Positions 4,456 through 49,487 of a stretch of 58,092 nucleotides of DNA are shown here, in pieces. The notes below the pieces were generated by a model, which saw only the letters and a program-made list of their open reading frames with translations, did not search any database and had not been told where the DNA came from. Positions within the stretch are counted from its first letter, which is position 1. Each line of letters starts with the position of its first letter. This stretch comes from a virus (taxonomy: Duplodnaviria; Caudoviricetes): positions 1 to 58,092 of IMG/VR virus record IMGVR_UViG_3300047585_000006; one strand, 5' to 3'. Position numbers and translations under genes: made by a program.

Positions 4456-5030
4456 CTGGTATCTCTTTCTAAGTAAATAGCCAATCGTCGCAAGACGTAG
4501 CCATCATCCTTCACATTTCCTAGAGCGAGGTTACAATATTGTCCTATAACCCCTCGAAAAGTCAATCGTATGTGGTCGTGGTCAAGGCACCAGTACCCAC
4601 AAGAATCTTTTCTACCACATGCTTGACAGAACCCATTAAAGGTTTCTGCGGCGTGTTTCGCTCTCGCCAACTCAGACTCAGACAATCCGGCTTTCCGCAA
4701 TTCATGAATCTGGCGTTCAAGTAAACACTTCGCACACGCCCGCCTTCCTTTGACGAGCGGACGATGTTCAACACAGCACGGGCACTCCCCGCTATTAAGA
4801 TGACGCCGATATCGTTCCTTAGACGCCGCAACATGGGGGGTGTTACACTGTAGGCATCGTACTTTACCCACAGACGGAGGAACTTTTCCGCAACGGGTAC
4901 AAAGCCCTGCGGCTTTGCGTCGTGCGGTACATCGACGAGTAGCATTATTCGCATTCCATCGAGTTGATCGTGCGATGATTTGTTCTTTATGCCCTTGATA
5001 GTATTGTGCGTCGGATTCTTTCTTTGTCAT
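4437..5030 (-). CDS. endonuclease VII-like HNH endonuclease
   Basis: CQAC...LDHDH...FRG...CNLALG; Zn-finger repeats; GGAG before ATG 5030. Confidence 0.85.
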   Translation of the reverse strand: MTKKESDAQYYQGHKEQIIARSTRWNANNATRRCTARRKAAGLCTRCGKVPPSVGKVRCLQCNTPHVAASKERYRRHLNSGECPCCVEHRPLVKGRRACAKCLLERQIHELRKAGLSESELARAKHAAETFNGFCQACGRKDSCGYWCLDHDHIRLTFRGVIGQYCNLALGNVKDDGYVLRRLAIYLERDTRCLADS

Positions 5031-5088: not shown

Positions 5089-5164
5089 TGGTGGACCGTG
5101 CTGGCATCGAACCAGCAACCTCTCGCTTGCAAGGCGAGTGCTCTCCCAATTGAGCTAACGGCCC
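5089..5164 (-). tRNA. tRNA-Ala(UGC)
   Basis: 76-nt cloverleaf GGGCCGTTAGCTCAATTGG...CTCGC-CTTGCAA-GCGAG...GTTCGA...ACGGTCCACCA; G3.U70 pair; encoded CCA. Confidence 0.97.
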
Positions 5165-18803: not shown

Positions 18804-19203
18804 GAAGAGTTTTCCAGTCTCGAAGATACTTCGCAGCCGCTTCAAGAATGAGAGGATCGTCCATGAAACGACCCAGACCCGTGTTGCAATTCACACACAG
18901 TAAACCTCGGACTTTTTGCGTCTCGTGATTATGGTCAGTATGTGGTGCATCCAGTAAGCGTGAGCAAATCGCACAGCGGTTATTCTGTGCGGCCTTCTTC
19001 GCTTCATGTTCCTCGGGCGTTAACCCGTACGTTTTCTTGATGTAGTTGTCGTGATAAAAAGTCGGATTCAACCTATTGAACTCTTGAGTGCGTATGATGC
19101 AGCACGCCTTACACTCGTTGCGAGAATTCAGGTTATCCGACGTTTGAGCATGACCCCGCTTACAGACCTTTGGGATTTGTAAGCGGGGTTTTCTTTTCGA
19201 CAT
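18790..19203 (-). CDS. endonuclease VII-like HNH endonuclease
   Basis: YGLT, CAIC, DHNH, VRGLLCVNCNTGLG. Confidence 0.92.
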   Translation of the reverse strand: MSKRKPRLQIPKVCKRGHAQTSDNLNSRNECKACCIIRTQEFNRLNPTFYHDNYIKKTYGLTPEEHEAKKAAQNNRCAICSRLLDAPHTDHNHETQKVRGLLCVNCNTGLGRFMDDPLILEAAAKYLRDWKTLHEQS

Positions 19204-22200: not shown

Positions 22201-23667
22201 AAACGTGTCGCCCGTCGTCAAACCTGCGGGATACGTTTCCGTTCCAAATACAACTTTACCGAGTCCACCAACTACGCCGTCAAGCGTAACCGTGTACACG
22301 TCAAGCTTCTTCTCGAACGTAGTGATCGAAGGCGGCGTGAATGCCGCACCTGTTCGACCAGCGGTCGTGATCTGCCAAACGTTGCCCGATGCGTCGAGAA
22401 TGATAGACGCCGGGGAGTAGTACGTGTTTGGTGACCAATTCCCGGCGGTTGCACCAAAAGTCGAAACAGCCAGGGCCTCATCCGGGGCTGCGAGGCCCCA
22501 ATTCTGAACAGTCGTACCCCGGTTGGCCCAAAGTGCTTGGCCGTCTACCGTGATGCTGCCTTGAAAATTCGTCGCCGCTGAGGGTGCCGTAGTACCCCAA
22601 GTCGGCACACTACTCCCGAGGAGTATAGTGTTCGCCGGGTTCGGAACTCCGTTGATGAGAGATGGTGCCCCATCAACCTGAATGAACGCCGTGTTATTTC
22701 CGGCAGTGATCGTTTCCGACACGTTGCCATGAACGAACGCAGCCTTGATCGTCGTGCTATCCCAGACTTCGGTCAACGTGATCGTCGCACCCTGCAAGAA
22801 TGCGAGGCTGTGCGTCGGACCAAATTGGCCCGCCGTATCCGTGCTCCAAATGACAAACTGAGCACCAACTTGGGGGTATCCAGTGCTGCCGATGTTCGAG
22901 AACGGAGAACCACTGACCGTCAGAGTCAACGTATCGTTTGCGATGACAACGTTCGTGATGTAAATGTTGTTAACACTCGTAGTCGGGGCCGAACCGCTCT
23001 GTGCGATTGCACCGATCAACTGCTCCATGTTGCTATTCCCGTCGATGAGAAAGGTGCTCATGAATGGATACGAGTTCAACGGAAGAGGTTGACTATTACT
23101 TGCAGCCGTACGTTTGAAGAGGGATTGAGTCCATTTCTTGTTATCAACACCATCACCGAAGTACCACTGATTGGCGACTTGCTTACCGTAGCTCTGGCCT
23201 GCACTCGGGGAATTGCTCTCCCAGACAGCCGGAGTCGAACCGGGATCGCCCGGTTGTTTTTGAAACGCAGCATTGATCGCAGACAAGGACGCGTTAGCAT
23301 CTCCAGCCGGACCTTCGCTCACCATCACGTCGATTTGTTCGGTCACTGTGCCAAAGATGTCGCTGAGGGCCTTGCTGATTCGGAACTCGTCGAAAGACAG
23401 AACATTGTCCCACGTATTCACCGTGTCGTAAACCGGGTTACCGGGACGGCGAGATAGCGTGAGACGGTTGGTAACTTCGACGTTCGATCCTGCAATCATG
23501 GCATCGCCATCAGGACCGTAAAACTTTTCTTGGGTTCGGGTAGTCCGAGCATCCCGCAGCGGAGAACGATTGGTGTACAGGCCGTTGAAGTATCGCCCTG
23601 TATACAAAGGAGCCGACTTAGTGGGCTTGGGGGGTTGTGCTCCAGCAGCCTGCATAGCATTAGGCAT
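19207..23667 (-). CDS. large tail/head-closure protein (P22 gp10-like position) with inserted PA14-like and other modules
   Basis: 1486 aa; propeller-like C-terminal part (YHLNRLWY, GLLVFTLSDVY); GTYTFSISHDDGAFF...YTIEIDYVN. Confidence 0.65.
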   Translation of the reverse strand: MPNAMQAAGAQPPKPTKSAPLYTGRYFNGLYTNRSPLRDARTTRTQEKFYGPDGDAMIAGSNVEVTNRLTLSRRPGNPVYDTVNTWDNVLSFDEFRISKALSDIFGTVTEQIDVMVSEGPAGDANASLSAINAAFQKQPGDPGSTPAVWESNSPSAGQSYGKQVANQWYFGDGVDNKKWTQSLFKRTAASNSQPLPLNSYPFMSTFLIDGNSNMEQLIGAIAQSGSAPTTSVNNIYITNVVIANDTLTLTVSGSPFSNIGSTGYPQVGAQFVIWSTDTAGQFGPTHSLAFLQGATITLTEVWDSTTIKAAFVHGNVSETITAGNNTAFIQVDGAPSLINGVPNPANTILLGSSVPTWGTTAPSAATNFQGSITVDGQALWANRGTTVQNWGLAAPDEALAVSTFGATAGNWSPNTYYSPASIILDASGNVWQITTAGRTGAAFTPPSITTFEKKLDVYTVTLDGVVGGLGKVVFGTETYPAGLTTGDTFVVHRLRVAQDLVLNGLIFTVVSVSSSPVPGAPATITATNPSLTVAASSVVGDAGYITLNKIAGAPATTYSSGTEIWTAVQTAASTTWAPNTHFYEDDYILQSANIFQLYKGVQPFIHSLYPIPGGSTCPNLPSGFAAPAQPVTAYGFDNANTGIPGKGFNFFQGYFPISFPSPPPTSNPISPNAQSLWQQTGSTMTQPVAVLPGGFDGSGGDIFFYAVSGNGTLQPSPGNSGYAGDNGMVFLASVYIPAPGTYTFSISHDDGAFFGFFNATGSGPNPSNNAGTGASCVLNIPLANLVGNNHSVDGGGEGHPPQSGVLTENGTFTFPSAGNYTIEIDYVNWENQAAMILTANGSWTVVPLGQNLAVGQDISWTSAPAWPTGSSIQTTGQSYAAGPATASTPFAGEIVFGARVAEASNLYTWMNLGPVSTFNVASFAPNTPYTLPGTGVVVNGATFLPYGTGVSSSTIPASNFTAASTVGSLAQDGATLWWINTGTAPTQSNTPGKITATSTQGFVYGIALVNTIDNTVSNMGPTNEINGVGVQVIGGVVIFPPGEGLDPATIDPQADYVAIYRTTDGGSIELLVPNDGNTIWTVPLVQYLQYGYVDDTPDTQLDELLQGAVAQENTPPLPGAVNLTYHLNRLWYSIGNTVYYTSGPNAPSGNGINGTAPGNIDTMISRVTRLVPVSQGLLVFTLSDVYIIPDNNGTILDGRPYLPGVGLPSYNALDVNGTLMGLFTTDHQFLIFNPANGADHVGHPIADQFRLDNGNPGQDWNPSSVYVAWYANGEDMGWFASDGLNGWYRLVATPAPEQGLAWSPFATILPGTGQGCGAIKAIEVSPGNHLLLTGPAPSGGTSGVGSILARNLNATTDGGTTLINGTTYPAYAVFGSYVCAQPGQVANIQFVTTDSVATGTPLILGVLLDEALPYFTGSMRILKRWESDPPNLKPSKSIYGQRFYVSEDHEECESVRHLQVMIQWAPESAINELLSFTIYGSFTPED

Positions 23668-28767: not shown

Positions 28768-29218
28768 AGAAGTTCTCCAGATAATCAGCGGCTTCACGAA
28801 GTAAGTTCGGGTTATCCGAAAAGAAGCCAAGACCCCTATTATGAGTATCACACATGAGTCCACGAACTTTCTGGGTAGTGTGACAGTGGTCTATAACTTC
28901 AATTGAACGTCCGCACGACGGAAGAATACACACGCCATTTTGCTTCTTATACATCTCATCATACCGCTCTTGAGTGATACGATATTTGCATTTCAGCCGA
29001 TGACGATGCCCGCTTTCACGATTTCTCTTCCGATACTCTATGAGATTCTTTTCTCGGTATCCTTTTTGTTGTATAGCCACGTGATGCCTATTAACCGAGT
29101 ACCGAAGTCTGTCACAAGCCTTACAACAAATTTGACCCGTCGCCTTCATATAGACGTTTTCTGAAGTTAACTCATGCCCCTTACGACAATGCGTAGGAAC
29201 TCCACGTTTGTGATACAT
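28757..29218 (-). CDS. endonuclease VII-like HNH endonuclease
   Basis: CRKGHELTSEN, DHCH, VRGLMCDTHNRGLG; AGGAG before ATG 29218. Confidence 0.9.
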   Translation of the reverse strand: MYHKRGVPTHCRKGHELTSENVYMKATGQICCKACDRLRYSVNRHHVAIQQKGYREKNLIEYRKRNRESGHRHRLKCKYRITQERYDEMYKKQNGVCILPSCGRSIEVIDHCHTTQKVRGLMCDTHNRGLGFFSDNPNLLREAADYLENFYGK

Positions 29219-29973: not shown

Positions 29974-30408
29974 CTATAGGATTTCGATCACGTCTGAAGG
30001 CTGTAAATATTCCACAGCTTTCATCAGCACCGCAATGTTGTCCTTACAACATCCCAACATGCGATTGCATGGTTTACACAAAACTCCGCGAAACTTCTCC
30101 GTTACGTGGTCGTGATCAGTATCCCACATAACGCCGTCGCCCGAACCCCCACAGATCGCACATTGCTTTCCTTGGGCTTCAAATAAAACACGACGTTGTT
30201 CAAGAGTAATTCCACACAGCCTCATCAATGCTTGAGACTGTTGTACTTCTTTCGTCTTGTCATAGTTCGCCCTCGTAACTTCACGATGACAAATTTTGCA
30301 ATAACTCGACATCTTTTTCGGAGTAAAGTGATACTTCGCAACGGGCTTGTTTTCTCCGCATTTCGGACAGATTTTACAACCATCGACTACAAAATTCTTA
30401 GTCTTCAA
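29974..30408 (-). CDS. endonuclease VII-like HNH endonuclease
   Basis: CPKC, CAIC, DHDH, FRGVLCKPCNRMLG; likely TTG start at 30408. Confidence 0.88.
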   Translation of the reverse strand: MKTKNFVVDGCKICPKCGENKPVAKYHFTPKKMSSYCKICHREVTRANYDKTKEVQQSQALMRLCGITLEQRRVLFEAQGKQCAICGGSGDGVMWDTDHDHVTEKFRGVLCKPCNRMLGCCKDNIAVLMKAVEYLQPSDVIEIL

Positions 30409-32360: not shown

Positions 32361-32984
32361 TTAATTTCTCTTTTCTGCGAGAGCCTTAGCCCTCGTCAAG
32401 ATTTCTGTAATTCTCATGTCCACAATCAGAGATGGAATCTGGTGCCCATAAGCCCTAGTCAATGCCATTTCTAACCAAGCCCTTAACGAAAACTTTGACT
32501 TGCTAGCTTGACATGACAACTGCGAACTTTCAGGATGTGAACCGCAGCACGGGACTAGGTTTCCGGGTTGATGACCGAGCGATGAATCGATTCGGTCTAG
32601 CCCCCAGACTTTACCTTCTTCGGGAACTCTCCCACAATAAGTACATGGTCGAGCATTTCCATTCTCGTCGAGGTAGTAATGAATCGCCTCAGTCGGGTTT
32701 GAAAATCCAAAATTTCGTCCTGCTACTTTGTCTGTCCACCGCATTCCAAGATATCGTTTCCGAATAATCTTGTAATAACCGTTAGACATACTTTTGGCAC
32801 GGTTTGTAAACTCTTGCCCTGCTCTCGTGTAACTCTTGAGCGTTCCATCTTTTCTCCACTCAGCAGCCCAGTCATCTACCGCTCCGATTGAGAGATTCAA
32901 TCGTTGAGAGATTTCTTGGGGTCCTCGCTGTTGGAGCAATAATTCAAGCGTCTTTCGACGCACGTCTTCAGAATGTGCTTTCAT
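32361..32984 (-). CDS. HTH-fused HNH-type endonuclease
   Basis: N-terminal HTH-like (QEISQRLNLSIGAVDDW); CTYC, GLDRIDS..GH..GNLVPCC. Confidence 0.85.
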   Translation of the reverse strand: MKAHSEDVRRKTLELLLQQRGPQEISQRLNLSIGAVDDWAAEWRKDGTLKSYTRAGQEFTNRAKSMSNGYYKIIRKRYLGMRWTDKVAGRNFGFSNPTEAIHYYLDENGNARPCTYCGRVPEEGKVWGLDRIDSSLGHQPGNLVPCCGSHPESSQLSCQASKSKFSLRAWLEMALTRAYGHQIPSLIVDMRITEILTRAKALAEKRN

Positions 32985-33052: not shown

Positions 33053-35912
33053 CTAGCTAATAGCTGCAATTTGTTACTCGCCTTGCGGCGGGATAAGACA
33101 TTTCTGCTTACCTCTCATAGTTTATCATTTCCTATGAGATCAGACTATCGCATCACACTTTCGTGTGTTCTCTCGCTTAGTCGTTCAGGCTGCCTTGCGG
33201 CTTGCCCCTTGTTGGCATTTCAGCGTCCAAGTCAATCAGAGAGAATTTATACCGCCCCATTGTATTAAGGCGGCGTCAATCTGTCGCATACGGATGGTGG
33301 TATCAGGACCAAGAGAGGTCGTGAAATGCACCCGATACGATGTCCCACAAATTCAGATCAACAACCCGGACAGACGATTATCCGGGGATCAGCCCTTCAG
33401 GATCAGCAACAGTCGGTTCAGCATTCTGCGGGTGTTACCTAGACTGTTAGTAAGGGTTAGTCATTTCTGCTAACCTCTCATACTTACTTTTCGTATGAGA
33501 TCGGACTATTGCATCGCCTTACGGCGTCTTCTCGCTTAGTCTCTCAGCGTACCTTTCGGCTTCGCCCTCGTTGGCATTTCAGCGTTCGAGTCAATCAGAG
33601 AAGATTTTACATCGTCCAGTTTGTTAAACGATGTTGCACTTGATGTTTCGCCAATCGCCGTCACCGTAGGTGGTGTCGTTCTGGGCACCCAGATTGATTG
33701 AGAAGATTCCGTCCTTACCGAAAATGTAAGTGCGGAGTGCCGTCAGACCAGTGACGCCCTTGTAGTTCGAGGTCTTCGTTACAAGGTTCGTCTGGAAGAA
33801 ATGAACTCCGGTTGAAGGCAGTTCAATCACTTCCTCAAGGTCAACGCTGACCAGTTCGTCCATCTTGGCTTGGCCCACCGGAGTGTGCTTCAAGATGTCG
33901 ATTGGAGAGTCGTTGCTGTTATCAGCAAGCACGTCACCCAGAGCGAACGGGTGTATGTAATTGTGTTTGGGTTAAATCGGAAGATTTCCGAACCCTACAT
34001 CACTGTAGGTACGCTCTCATTGTCACCAATGAGTTCAGACTCTATCTTGACTTCTTGCGAAGTCTCTTGCGTATTAGTCGTTAGAGATGACCCACGTTTG
34101 TTCAGTGTTTGCATTTTCCCCAGCAATTCTTTTCGTTTCGCTGCGAGAGTTTCGTCAAAACCGTTGTTGTGCGGAAGCCTGATATACTGAAGGGCTATAT
34201 TCGCCTGCTCTTGTTTGATTACCAGATACGGTAGAATCCCCAAGAGCAACTGCTCACTGTTGGTTCGTCCTTTTGGACGCCAGCCATAAGCAATCTTGTG
34301 TTTCAGATTTGCACGACGGTGATGATAGTATTGTCCACCAAAGTGCTGTACGAGCCACTCCATCAAATCGAGATTCGTATTTGTGACTTCGATACGAATC
34401 GCAGTTGAATCATAAGGACTGCCGTTACTCGACAACCCCTTATGGTGGTAGATACTGAAAGTGCCTTCACCATCAAACATTCCGGCCAGATACGACCAAT
34501 ACACCTTGTCAGGTGTTTTCATAGGTTCTTTCCTCGGTATTTTCTGCTTCGATTCTAATCTAACAGATGTTCACCGATATAGCAAGATTTTTTAACGTTG
34601 GAGCCATACTCTACGCATGTGCTGCGTAGGCTTTGGTGTTAACCCCAACGAATGCTTTGGATGCTTCGTCAAACGGACGGATCGAGCGACCTGCCATCGA
34701 CTGGACAGAGTTACGAATCTGGCTCAGAGACAGTGCAGTGAAGCTGGCCGTGGTCGAAGCAGCAAGCTGCACGAGCACGGAAGCGTCAATGCTGGACGCA
34801 CCGTCGGCGGTTGCACGCACAAGTGCGGACAGGGACTCGCCCAGACGGTAAGACATTTCCTTCGCAACGTTCTCGACGGTGTTGTCAATCGTGGTAGCGA
34901 GAGACAGAGACGAGAAGTTCGCGTAATCTGCGTACTCACCAATGGTCGCGGTGGTAGTCAGAACGCTGATGGACAGAGACGATCCCACAGTCCCTTCCGT
35001 AGTCGGGTTCGTGTTCTGGGCCAGAGGGACGTACATAAACCAATTGTGTTTTGGGTTTAAGGCAGAAAGCCCCCTAGTTCACACTAGGGTCGCTCTACAT
35101 ATCACTATGCAGTTCAGACTCTATCTTTACGACACTGGCGTGTCGATGTTTGACGTATTAGTCGTTGGGGATTCCACATCTTCATCGTACTGGTGGAGAC
35201 TTTTCATTTTCTCCCACAGTTGATAACGTCGTTCAGGATTTTCAACACCTGTCATACGAACGTATTCAAGAGCCGTCACTGCCTGCTCTTGTTTAATTAA
35301 CAGGTATGGTAGGATTCCAAGAAGAAAGGCTTCTACCTTCTTGTGACCCCCTAGGCAAGACCATTTGAAGCATTGTCTTTTCCCTAGTTTTCCGAGAGAG
35401 ACTTCATAGAAATCTCCACCGAAATACCGAACCATCCATCGCATCAACCGCTGAGACGTATTGATTACTGAAATCTTAAGATTGTAATTGTAGTAAGGCG
35501 TGCCTATTTTAGTTTCAGCACAAACCCTACTGATACAAATACATCCTTCGCAATCAACCGCCATCGCTGCCATAGCGAGTTTGGTTTTATCCTGTGTCAT
35601 TATCATGATGTGGTCTTTCCTCCGTCTTGTCTACATTATAGATATTAACGGATATAGTCAAATTTATTTTTAAGTACGGGACTATCATGTAATCTCGTAC
35701 TGGTTACCAGACTTCATGGGGAGGTCGAGGCGTTCCGAACAACGTACGAACGGAGTGTTAGCCTTCAAATTCTCCCTGAATCGCTTATCGTAGTACTTCC
35801 ACCACGATGATTCTTCTGCGGAAATCGAACTTCTCCCAACGTCTGTTTACGGCAAAGTAACCGTGGATTGGGGGAGGTTGGACAACTGATTGCCCGCAGG
35901 CGAAAATGACAT
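33053..35912 (-). CDS. major capsid protein (N4-gp56-like), 7 exons: 35912-35860, 35799-35692, 35040-34642, 33957-33627, 33428-33380, 33345-33268, 33066-33053; 343 aa
   Basis: Follows the scaffold gene; exons total 1032 nt and join in frame: MSFSPAGNQLSNLPQSTV/KYYDKRFRENLK...QYEM/FMYVPL...FVGV/IHPF...CNIV/QNAEP...IPGW/TSYRVHF...DAAS/AIS*. Confidence 0.9.
33067..33267 (-). mobile_element. group I intron 6, no ORF, 201 nt
   Basis: P1 GCCGCCU/GGGCGGU; P3 UUCUCUC/GAGAGAA; P7 GACUA/UAGUC; ends AAUUG. Confidence 0.92.
33346..33379 (-). other. 34-nt core-less mini-intron (intron 5)
   Basis: P1 CCCGGAU/GUCCGGG; P10 GUCU/GGAC; terminal G; removal restores T|GG Trp and the frame. Confidence 0.8.
33429..33626 (-). 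mobile_element. group I intron 4, no ORF, 198 nt
   Basis: P1 ACAUCGUU/GACGAUGU; P10 CUG/CAG; P3 UCUUCUC/GAGAAGA; P7 GACUA/UAGUC; terminal G. Confidence 0.92.
33958..34641 (-). mobile_element. group I intron 3 with LAGLIDADG ORF, 684 nt, ends in A
   Basis: P1 CGUUGGGGU/GCUCCAACG; P10 GUAUG/CAUAC; P3 UCUUGC/GCAAGA; P7 GACU/AGUC. Confidence 0.9.
33995..34522 (-). CDS. intron-encoded LAGLIDADG endonuclease
   Basis: YLAGMFDGEGTF; ILPYLVIKQEQA. Confidence 0.95.
   Translation of the reverse strand: MKTPDKVYWSYLAGMFDGEGTFSIYHHKGLSSNGSPYDSTAIRIEVTNTNLDLMEWLVQHFGGQYYHHRRANLKHKIAYGWRPKGRTNSEQLLLGILPYLVIKQEQANIALQYIRLPHNNGFDETLAAKRKELLGKMQTLNKRGSSLTTNTQETSQEVKIESELIGDNESVPTVM
35041..35691 (-). mobile_element. 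group I intron 2 with LAGLIDADG ORF, 651 nt
   Basis: P1 GUACGAGAU/GUCCCGUAC (one mismatch); P10 UACAUGA/UUAUGUA; P3 UUUGAC/GUCAAA; P7 GACU/AGUC; ends ACAAUUG. Confidence 0.9.
35127..35606 (-). CDS. intron-encoded LAGLIDADG endonuclease
   Basis: MAAMAVDCEGCI (divergent motif); ILPYLLIKQEQA shared with the intron 3 ORF. Confidence 0.88.
   Translation of the reverse strand: MIMTQDKTKLAMAAMAVDCEGCICISRVCAETKIGTPYYNYNLKISVINTSQRLMRWMVRYFGGDFYEVSLGKLGKRQCFKWSCLGGHKKVEAFLLGILPYLLIKQEQAVTALEYVRMTGVENPERRYQLWEKMKSLHQYDEDVESPTTNTSNIDTPVS
35800..35859 (-). other. 60-nt core-less mini-intron (intron 1)
   Basis: P1 ACGGU/GCCGU; P10 UACUUU/GAAGUA; terminal G; contains an in-frame TAA. Confidence 0.75.
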
Positions 35913-41684: not shown

Positions 41685-41910
41685 GCAGCCTCTTCCACGC
41701 TTCCACGTAGGCGGCTGCTTTGCGAAGCAGTTCAGGAGAATCTTTCAAGCATCCAACGCCCGCATTACACAAAGGACAAAGAATGCTACGAGTTCGATTC
41801 GTCTCGTGGTCATGATCCGTAGACCATCCACGACCTCCGGGTTCAGTTACGCCGCATAGACCACAACAGCGACCTTGGGCTTCAAACTTCAACTCCCATT
41901 CCGTTTTCAT
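41584..41910 (-). CDS. endonuclease VII-like HNH endonuclease
   Basis: CGLC, DHDH, RSILCPLCNAGVG; overlaps terL by 101 nt. Confidence 0.88.
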   Translation of the reverse strand: MKTEWELKFEAQGRCCGLCGVTEPGGRGWSTDHDHETNRTRSILCPLCNAGVGCLKDSPELLRKAAAYVEAWKRLHDEGTTGDLVYETSDGQELSVPQPDGYSLQRCC

Positions 41911-42876: not shown

Positions 42877-43282
42877 TGGATTCCTTTCTTTTCCGCTCAA
42901 CATATTCGGCGGCTTTACGAAGAAGCTCCGGGGAATCCCTGAAACTTCCGAGGGCCGTGTTACACCGATGACACAGAAGTCCTCGGATACACTTGCCACA
43001 ACTCTTCGTTCCTGAACAGCAAGAGTGGTCGTGGTCAATAGCGGGCGTTACGTCAAACACGTCTTCGCATAGAGCACATGAATTATTTTGAGTTACGGAC
43101 ATCTCCACAAATCTCTGAAACGTAATGTTAAAGTTCTGTTGAAGATGATACGTACGACGATACGCGTCTTTTTCCGTGCGGTGCGTACTCCGATAGTTCT
43201 TGTCGTACTCAGACTTTTCGTCCCGCTTTTGTTCCACACGGGCGTGATCGTACGCAGCCTTCTTTTCTTTCGACATCGGCAT
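42857..43282 (-). CDS. endonuclease VII-like HNH endonuclease
   Basis: CALC, IDHDHSCC...SCGKCIRGLLCHRCNTALG. Confidence 0.92.
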   Translation of the reverse strand: MPMSKEKKAAYDHARVEQKRDEKSEYDKNYRSTHRTEKDAYRRTYHLQQNFNITFQRFVEMSVTQNNSCALCEDVFDVTPAIDHDHSCCSGTKSCGKCIRGLLCHRCNTALGSFRDSPELLRKAAEYVERKRKESNVVFSS

Positions 43283-49087: not shown

Positions 49088-49487
49088 TGGAATGCCTCTT
49101 AACGTATTCGATTGCACGCTGCATCAACTCGATATCATCACCAAACATGCCCAGCCCACTGTTGCACGCACGACACAACATTTCACGAACTTTCTTAGTC
49201 GTATGATCGTGGTCAACAAACAACTTTTCGCACGGGCGTTTACAGAGGCTACAACGACCATCTGCGTCCTTCAACATTTTCTCATATTGTTGAGGGGTTA
49301 ATCCGTAACGGATGCGAAGGTGCCAATTCTTGATCCCCTCCGCAATTTTGATTTTCGCAACCGTCGTATTTTGAGTTGCCTTCTTACAAGTCTTACAATA
49401 CCTTTGTCCCGTTGCGGGACGTTGATAAGTGTTCTCGGGCGTAAGTTCGTGTCCCTTGAAACAGTGGGTACGTCGTTTTCCTGCCAT
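49080..49487 (-). CDS. endonuclease VII-like HNH endonuclease
   Basis: CFKGHELTPEN, YGLT, VDHDH, LCRACNSGLG. Confidence 0.92.
   Translation of the reverse strand: MAGKRRTHCFKGHELTPENTYQRPATGQRYCKTCKKATQNTTVAKIKIAEGIKNWHLRIRYGLTPQQYEKMLKDADGRCSLCKRPCEKLFVDHDHTTKKVREMLCRACNSGLGMFGDDIELMQRAIEYVKRHSNA

Follow-up and report, generated by a model that had tools for sequence, protein, structure and literature searches.

Candidate core-less mini-introns beside complete group I introns in the interrupted capsid gene of a Tunturi_3-like phage

The subject of this analysis is the major capsid protein (MCP) gene of a soil phage, a virus of the class Caudoviricetes. It is located on a stretch of 58,092 nucleotides (record IMGVR_UViG_3300047585_000006 of the IMG/VR database), which was analyzed as a whole and is denoted here as the window. 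This window is an incomplete linear viral contig comprising about 60% of the genome. It shows synteny to the structural module of the Acidobacteriota-infecting isolate Tunturi_3, a Tunturiibacter phage. The MCP gene lies on the minus strand from 35912 to 33053 and is interrupted by six inserts of 60, 651, 684, 198, 34 and 201 nt. The 60- and 34-nt inserts, named mini 1 and mini 2 in the following, are in the focus of this work together with their possible relation to the four larger neighbours. The coordinates of all features are collected in Table 1.

Tunturi_3 is the only cultured relative in the phage collection and its MCP gene is uninterrupted, encoding 343 amino acids. This protein served as guide for a protein-to-DNA dynamic programme of our own that gives no bonus to splice sites. 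A first-pass annotation of the window had proposed that a continuous MCP frame of 343 residues appears after removal of six segments, and the unbiased alignment returned the identical six lengths. The seven exons join to 1032 nt, i.e. 343 codons and a stop without any internal stop codon, and the joined protein aligns with that of Tunturi_3 without gaps (278 of 343 residues identical). At both positions for which a gap-free alignment with an intron-less MCP had been foreseen, i.e. between STV and KYYD and between IPG and WTSY, the junctions read as predicted. In tblastn the alignment of the Tunturi_3 protein to the window is fragmented, with a gap of 20 codons between STV and K and a change of frame between IPG and W. 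No second intact copy of the MCP gene was seen in the window, and the capsid open reading frame (ORF) of Tunturi_3 matches this locus only.

The exon sequence preceding each of the six inserts ends with a U that is part of a U.G wobble in a P1 helix, as was noted from the beginning. In the 651-nt intron this helix, judged by eye, has nine positions of which one is an A.C mismatch, and in the other five inserts it has 5, 9, 8, 7 and 7 contiguous base pairs. A terminal G is present in five of the six inserts, including both minis. The 684-nt intron 3 deviates from the picture of the first-pass annotation, its last base being A in every protein-equivalent register. Its P10 helix (GUAUG/CAUAC, 5 bp) supports the A-ending 3' site. 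Introns ending with A were also observed in related phages, namely in L108, L109, L110 and L237 (site 186), L138 (site 52), L100 (site 189) as well as L091 and L095 (site 211), and the P7 strand of such introns looks unchanged if compared to G-ending relatives.

The distinction between four inserts with a catalytic core and two without is upheld by Rfam, profile and covariation analyses, which support exactly these four and find no match in the minis. At the gathering score an Rfam scan of the window reveals no intron; a tRNA gene is the sole RNA family above this threshold. In a permissive scan of the region four Intron_gpI matches appear on the correct strand, all of them below the gathering score of 50 bits, and a scan of the whole window by E-value adds no intron outside the MCP gene. 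Introns 4 and 6, both about 200 nt long, belong to a family of 13 sequences that occupies six codon positions in related phages. For this family RNAalifold predicts P3, P4-P6, P8 and P9, with compensatory changes in 24 of 42 pairs, and the invariant blocks GACUA/UAGUC are able to pair as the P7 pseudoknot (judged by eye from the alignment). The family profile also matches the core of the 684-nt intron (E-value 0.0017), and no other match arises in the 58-kb window. The ORFs within introns 2 and 3 are paralogues with 35% identity (E-value 5e-28), and the latter matches the Pfam family LAGLIDADG_1 (PF00961) with an E-value of 1.3e-5 and 26.5 bits at a cut-off of 23.1. With known phage group I introns (RF00028) the large inserts share the U.G-containing P1, P10, the P3-P9 core and LAGLIDADG ORFs, and they are likewise placed in conserved codons. 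On these features all four can be classified as ordinary group I introns.

For intron 2 there is also a trace in RNA. A contig from a peat metatranscriptome (run X22), which is 100% identical to the window, joins 35041 to 35691 on the sense strand, leading back by exactly 651 nt. It is flanked by adapter sequence and covers intron 2 with slight flanks only. This junction fixes both boundaries of intron 2 to the base and is that expected of a full-length intron 2 circle. The contig has a depth of 43.8, and RNA of intron 2 seems far more abundant in this run than the MCP exons. Core covariation and the circle junction together make the introns in the neighbourhood of the minis look active.

The minis themselves have a simple anatomy. 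According to the first-pass annotation the small inserts supply P1, P10 and the terminal G while a core is missing, and this is the composition of both of them. In mini 1 the P1 helix ACGGU/GCCGU is closed by U.G, and the P10 helix UACUUU/GAAGUA (6 bp) adjoins the P1 guide; this mini is in frame and contains TAA. In mini 2 the P1 helix CCCGGAU/GUCCGGG is likewise closed by U.G and adjoined by a P10 of four base pairs (GUCU/GGAC); this mini cuts the codon of the invariant Trp314 between T and GG and shifts the frame. Neither Rfam nor the profile of the ~200-nt family detects a P3-P9 core with P7 in these 34 and 60 nt. There is no space for such a core in either of them. What the minis have in common with phage group I introns (RF00028) is the P1/P10 guide sequence together with U(-1) and the terminal G, but, with 34 and 60 nt here and 33-98 nt in relatives, they lack P3-P9 entirely and should not be able to act autonomously. 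As they fail the defining test for a core, we do not regard them as self-splicing group I introns. Their 5' site is a helix end beside a loop, seemingly unlike the bulge-helix-bulge motif of archaeal type (a comparison made without a systematic test).

One could nevertheless imagine that the minis splice themselves by some minimal new catalysis, e.g. by free guanosine attacking the exposed U.G site with the help of P10, and indeed with P1, P10 and the terminal G the two splice sites are already in proximity. In minis of 33-36 nt there is, however, no room for a G-binding site or a metal core, the strict co-occurrence with full introns described below would be left without explanation, and no precedent was found in the literature searched. 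We consider such autonomous minis as highly improbable.

Expression of the capsid protein apparently requires that the inserts are overcome. Translation through them is ruled out by in-frame stop codons and frame shifts, and recoding of stop codons is ruled out by the shift of frame that the 34-nt insert causes. Exact excision after the exon U and after the terminal G restores every site, with invariant residues including Trp314 and Val18. Among 56 distinct intron-less proteins none departs from Trp314, Val18 or Asp22, and a single one lacks Ala31. Contigs from the RNA runs X19, X20 and X21, which are 90-95% like the window, are devoid of all six inserts and continue into the neighbouring genes. 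They were rejected as spliced RNA of this phage; most simply they represent transcripts or DNA of an intron-less relative, and such relatives are common.

The minis could also stay in the messenger if ribosomes hopped over them, as they do over the 50-nt gap of T4 gene 60. Mini 2 begins with GGA followed by TAA and its hairpin includes this GGA; together with a GGG located 34 nt downstream and an A/U-rich tail this recalls the signals of gene 60 as presented in the available portions of the literature (PMC5009743; 10.1101/2022.08.31.505936). Yet a matched pair of take-off and landing codons restores the protein for none of 39 minis. At site 313 the sole candidate, a hop from GGA to GGG, would delete just the invariant Trp314, and mini 1 lacks a usable pair, the best one being off by six residues. 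Moreover, other minis at site 313 have TAT instead of a stop codon after GGA, and a hop would need neither P10 nor the terminal G. Bypassing appears very unlikely to us.

Relatives of this gene were collected by two protein-based scans of IMG/VR, from each of which the best 80 of about 255 matches were used, and pattern scans added further loci including 15 metagenome contigs. Genes were counted as distinct combinations of coding sequence and architecture obtained from complete genes (some contigs entered the collection twice). Of 95 distinct gene versions 68 are free of inserts, 10 contain only full introns and 17 contain full introns together with minis; a version with minis alone was not observed. 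The relative with the most similar exon 3 (L083, 98% identity) is intron-less; its MCP gene shows a 2-nt frame break at about codon 235, probably a sequencing error. Minis of 33-98 nt are located after codons 17, 20, 22, 30, 52, 53, 306 and 313. All 22 distinct minis that were checked at these eight sites possess U(-1) and the terminal G, and in each of them the P1 helix (5-10 bp) is adjoined by a P10 of 4-8 bp. The observed P1 length is attained by shuffled introns in 0.2-10.6% of trials, and random positions used as fake 3' exons attain the observed P10 length in 0.01-7% of cases. Judged by these controls, a P1/P10 signature over eight independent sites cannot be due to chance.

At site 20 near-identical minis differ by a compensatory change from C-G to G-C in P1 (CAAGUAU/GUACUUG versus GAAGUAU/GUACUUC), and at site 313 such a change leads from C-G to U-A (CCC../..GGG versus CCU../..AGG), which argues for ongoing selection on the RNA helix. 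A mini of 73 nt is present in eight loci of one set of relatives and recurred in a further scan, and minis at site 313 were found in 15 metagenome contigs. The minis form a recurrent class in the MCP genes of related phages, and this greatly extends the original observation of only two minis. In the database of genome contigs the site-313 pattern gave no match, so that no isolate genome or prophage with this mini is found there.

The origin of the minis can be reconstructed from the full introns of other phages. Sites 20, 22, 52 and 53 are occupied there by full introns of 200-893 nt. In the metagenome contig L246 a 756-nt intron with an endonuclease-like ORF and the family core lies at site 313 and a 204-nt full intron at site 306, and the loop and guide sequences of both are identical to those of the minis at these sites. 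Because the minis share sites and guide sequences with full introns, they can be identified as descendants of group I introns that lost the core by deletion and were formed in place. The series at site 313 includes forms of 34, 36, 45, 62, 65, 71, 83, 94, 97 and 98 nt with mini 2 as the shortest, and shorter forms correspond to longer ones minus an internal hairpin. One mini of 56 nt retains a fragment resembling the P3-P4 region (judged by eye). No conserved interior element was found across the minis of relatives, the shortest of which consist roughly of P1, P10 and a tail. The two complete introns of L246 (204 and 756 nt) are just seven codons apart, and redundancy of this type is the kind of setting in which a mini could arise.

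With this distribution in mind one has to ask whether the minis are removed at all or whether the genes containing them belong to defective phages whose broken MCP alleles are complemented by co-infecting relatives, or are simply assembly artefacts. The window is a metagenome-derived and incomplete contig, the 60-nt mini is seen here only, and intron-less relatives are common, as the 68 of 95 gene versions demonstrate. On the other hand alike minis occur in many independent contigs from many samples. The ratio of nonsynonymous to synonymous substitution rates (dN/dS) of mini-bearing genes is 0.04-0.09 with saturating dS, no higher than in intron-less pairs, which suggests purifying selection on the genes that harbour minis. 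The compensatory changes in P1 and the terminal G in 22 of 22 minis also do not fit decaying alleles, and the separate Logan assembly of DNA run X1, which may be the source sample, contains 100% of the sampled words. Invariant sites, low dN/dS and recurrence across samples make dead alleles or artefacts highly improbable.

A further regularity concerns the company in which minis are found. The first-pass annotation had raised the question whether minis in related phages always co-occur with full introns, and this is the case in 22 of 22 mini-bearing architectures; no gene with minis only was seen. This tally excludes L103, L275, L235 and L238, which are fragments or doubtful alignments (in L238 a 45-nt mini is present at site 313 and the contig ends at codon 318). 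Each of 34 minis has a full intron downstream at a distance of 8-70 codons. For minis at codons 300-313 the full intron follows 12-26 codons downstream in all 13 architectures and occupies site 318, 326, 330 or 339, all among the final 30 codons. A full intron at a codon position of at least 314 is present in 13 of 13 architectures with a C-terminal mini versus one of 18 other intron-bearing ones (Fisher test, 6.8e-8, which ignores phylogeny). In the capsid tree mini-bearing genes are scattered among intron-less ones, and different lineages have different partner sites. Mini 1 of the window precedes the 651-nt intron by 36 codons. Mini 2 lies between two full introns, with 17 codons separating it from the 198-nt intron upstream and 26 codons from the 201-nt intron downstream. 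The complete C-terminal pairing at four different partner sites fits the idea that full introns acting as helpers of minis are hard to lose.

We propose that the minis borrow a core, since the features they have retained are those which a group I core recognises and an RNA of 34 nt cannot supply a G-binding site and a metal core by itself. A mini would represent the substrate side of the ribozyme. Its guide would form the U.G-closed P1 with the last 5-7 bases of the preceding exon and P10 with the initial 4-6 bases of the exon that follows, with the terminal G being retained, and the resulting hairpin would align both splice sites without any catalytic ability of its own. This hairpin would dock into the core of a complete group I intron from the same pre-mRNA. 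The helper core would supply the G-binding P7 and the metal sites and would perform the usual two transesterifications, by which the MCP frame is restored exactly. The likeliest helper would be the next full intron downstream, which is the 651-nt intron in the case of mini 1 and the 201-nt one in that of mini 2. Conceivably, a P7 strand left over in the longer minis might invade the P7 of the helper. A U.G-containing helix supplied in trans is recognised by group I ribozymes. We infer three things here, namely that the minis are spliced, that this splicing follows group I-type chemistry and that the core is borrowed. To the reading that the two minis of the window are core-less group I derivatives spliced via the core of a neighbouring intron we assign about even chances. 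The wider proposal, a widespread class in soil phages of Acidobacteriota in which a guide hairpin of 33-98 nt with a terminal G borrows the downstream core within the capsid pre-mRNA, falls slightly short of that. Like any insert in a homing site, a mini would likely protect its allele from the endonuclease that the full intron encodes.

Several points weigh against a borrowed core. Mini 1 is known from this contig alone among the MCP loci scanned (an exact 16-mer of it matched 56 loci, none of them with capsid homology), and no RNA read or contig covers either mini at high identity in the runs examined (X19-X22). A free P1 helix docks only weakly into known group I cores. We know of no natural case of a group I core splicing a separate P1 hairpin, and none was found in the literature searched. 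A specific pairing between mini and helper was not found either, with no dedicated search for complementarity made. The nearest helper can be as far as 69-70 codons away (L271, L336). Shared ancestry and the origin of the minis from full introns are confounders of the co-occurrence, and it could arise simply because minis form only in intron-rich lineages. Finally, the window contains about 60% of the genome, so that other factors may be encoded elsewhere.

This last point leads to exact removal at the RNA level by a factor other than a sibling intron, i.e. a ribozyme or protein encoded by phage or host, such as an endonuclease together with an RNA ligase and a 2'-phosphotransferase in a pathway similar to that of tRNA or HAC1. 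In the annotation of Tunturi_3 (L231/L232, PP885686.1) two RNA ligases, an RNA 2'-phosphotransferase and a kinase make up an RNA repair set, and the window does not extend over the corresponding region. In addition, degenerate group I introns in the ribosomal DNA (rDNA) of lichen fungi are removed in vivo by machinery that the accessible part of the respective study leaves unidentified (10.1101/2021.05.01.442275). Nevertheless, it is group I ribozymes that recognise the conserved U.G, P10 and terminal G, and for protein splicing enzymes these have no known role. Tunturi_3 possesses those enzymes and yet has an intron-less MCP gene, and an outside factor does not predict the strict presence of a full intron nearby downstream. 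We rate it as unlikely.

Among known systems the group III introns of Euglena chloroplasts offer one parallel to minis served by a borrowed core. They are streamlined descendants of self-splicing introns of about 100 nt, thought to rely on factors acting in trans, and occur among full-size relatives. They differ from the minis in their group II lineage, their organellar location and their chemistry. The most fitting place for the minis is next to the degenerate group I introns in the nuclear rDNA of lichen fungi, which in the available portion of the study are likewise derived from group I introns, are devoid of catalytic sequences and have to be removed from an essential RNA (10.1101/2021.05.01.442275). 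What defines a degenerate intron there, group I ancestry together with catalytic loss, is seen in the minis as well, which have the sites and guides of full introns and no core. According to the same portion, the lichen introns are eukaryotic, reside in rRNA and not in mRNA, and the one studied has about 300 nt, whereas the phage minis are about tenfold smaller, interrupt a protein frame and always lie upstream of a complete intron.

The bypass cassette of T4 gene 60, as far as described in the accessible text, likewise interrupts an essential phage gene at an invariant codon with a short non-coding stretch (PMC5009743; 10.1101/2022.08.31.505936). Its last decoded codon is inside a hairpin, and so is the GGA of mini 2, which is followed straight by a stop here and by TAT in relatives at this site. 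According to the same sources the T4 gap gives protection from a homing endonuclease, and its origin from a degenerate intron has been suggested. In contrast to gene 60, the minis keep P10 and the terminal G and occur at many sites and in many lengths, not as one cassette. Engineered trans-excision-splicing group I ribozymes cut internal segments out of other RNAs and ligate the flanks, at least in the part of the report available (PMC2532722), and by analogy they show that the chemistry proposed here would be feasible. In that engineered system the ribozyme supplies the guide, while each mini, as the substrate, contains its own guide, and the system would be a natural one.

If the core is indeed borrowed, this would have consequences beyond a single capsid gene. 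Group I introns are textbook examples of autonomous ribozymes. A natural class in an essential gene that consists of the substrate half only would mean that one ribozyme core can serve several introns, a ribozyme-satellite relationship and RNA counterpart of miniature transposons that need a full-size relative. Helper introns would be locked in place and the allele would be immune to homing endonucleases. This would explain how introns can decay without death of the host gene, it would make a bacterial virus available as a simple model for the unsolved question of how degenerate group I introns are removed in lichen rDNA, and it would establish a link to the origin of the bypass gap in T4 gene 60. 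From the accessible parts of the literature on other intron-rich phages it might also be considered as an explanation for gene fragmentation that is left unexplained there. In practice, gene callers will misannotate mini-bearing capsid genes as fragments or pseudogenes, and a self-guided excision cassette of 34 nt could serve RNA engineering. Core-less group I mini-introns in phage mRNA are not described in the literature searched, which covered few subscription journals. In the main text of the Tunturi paper the word 'intron' does not occur, and the available portions of papers on intron-rich phages contain no description of such elements.

Table 1. Features of the interrupted MCP gene and other elements of the window with coordinates, strand and underlying evidence.
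Feature	Coordinates	Strand	Evidence and remarks
MCP exon 1	35860..35912	-	ATG to codon 18, phase 2; tblastn, dynamic programme, exon join
Mini-intron 1, 60 nt, core-less	35800..35859	-	P1, P10 and terminal G; dynamic programme
MCP exon 2	35692..35799	-	dynamic programme, exon join
Group I intron 2, 651 nt	35041..35691	-	U(-1), terminal G; Rfam 26.6 bits; RNA circle junction
159-aa ORF inside intron 2	35127..35606	-	paralogue of the LAGLIDADG ORF of intron 3; no Pfam match of its own
MCP exon 3	34642..35040	-	tblastn, dynamic programme
Group I intron 3, 684 nt	33958..34641	-	P1 of 9 bp; last base A; Rfam 28.9 bits
175-aa LAGLIDADG homing-endonuclease-like ORF inside intron 3	33995..34522	-	PF00961
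MCP exon 4	33627..33957	-	tblastn, dynamic programme, exon join
Group I intron 4, 198 nt, no ORF (U..G register)	33429..33626	-	Rfam 14.5 bits; ~200-nt family
MCP exon 5, 49 nt	33380..33428	-	dynamic programme, exon join
Mini-intron 2, 34 nt, core-less	33346..33379	-	P1, P10 and terminal G; dynamic programme
MCP exon 6, 78 nt	33268..33345	-	dynamic programme, exon join
Group I intron 6, 201 nt, no ORF	33067..33267	-	Rfam 15.9 bits; ~200-nt family; candidate helper for mini-intron 2
MCP exon 7	33053..33066	-	last 4 codons and TAG
tRNA gene	5092-5164	-	Rfam 66.8 bits
Endonuclease VII-like matches	4467-4613, 18805-19050, 28775-29020, 30001-30255, 41701-41904, 42896-43195, 49098-49340	-	paralogous matches to the endonuclease VII ORF of Tunturi_3
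207-aa ORF	32361-32984	-	weak HTH_23 match, E-value 3.4e-4, below cut-off
Homologue of the Tunturi_3 head decoration protein	22351-23667	-	aligns in three gapped pieces

Besides the MCP gene, seven paralogous matches to an ORF annotated as endonuclease VII in Tunturi_3 are scattered between the structural genes, and they look like free-standing genes of homing-type endonucleases. The 207-aa ORF is located directly downstream of the MCP gene and could be another mobile endonuclease-like gene. The gaps in the alignment of the head decoration homologue may represent domain variation.

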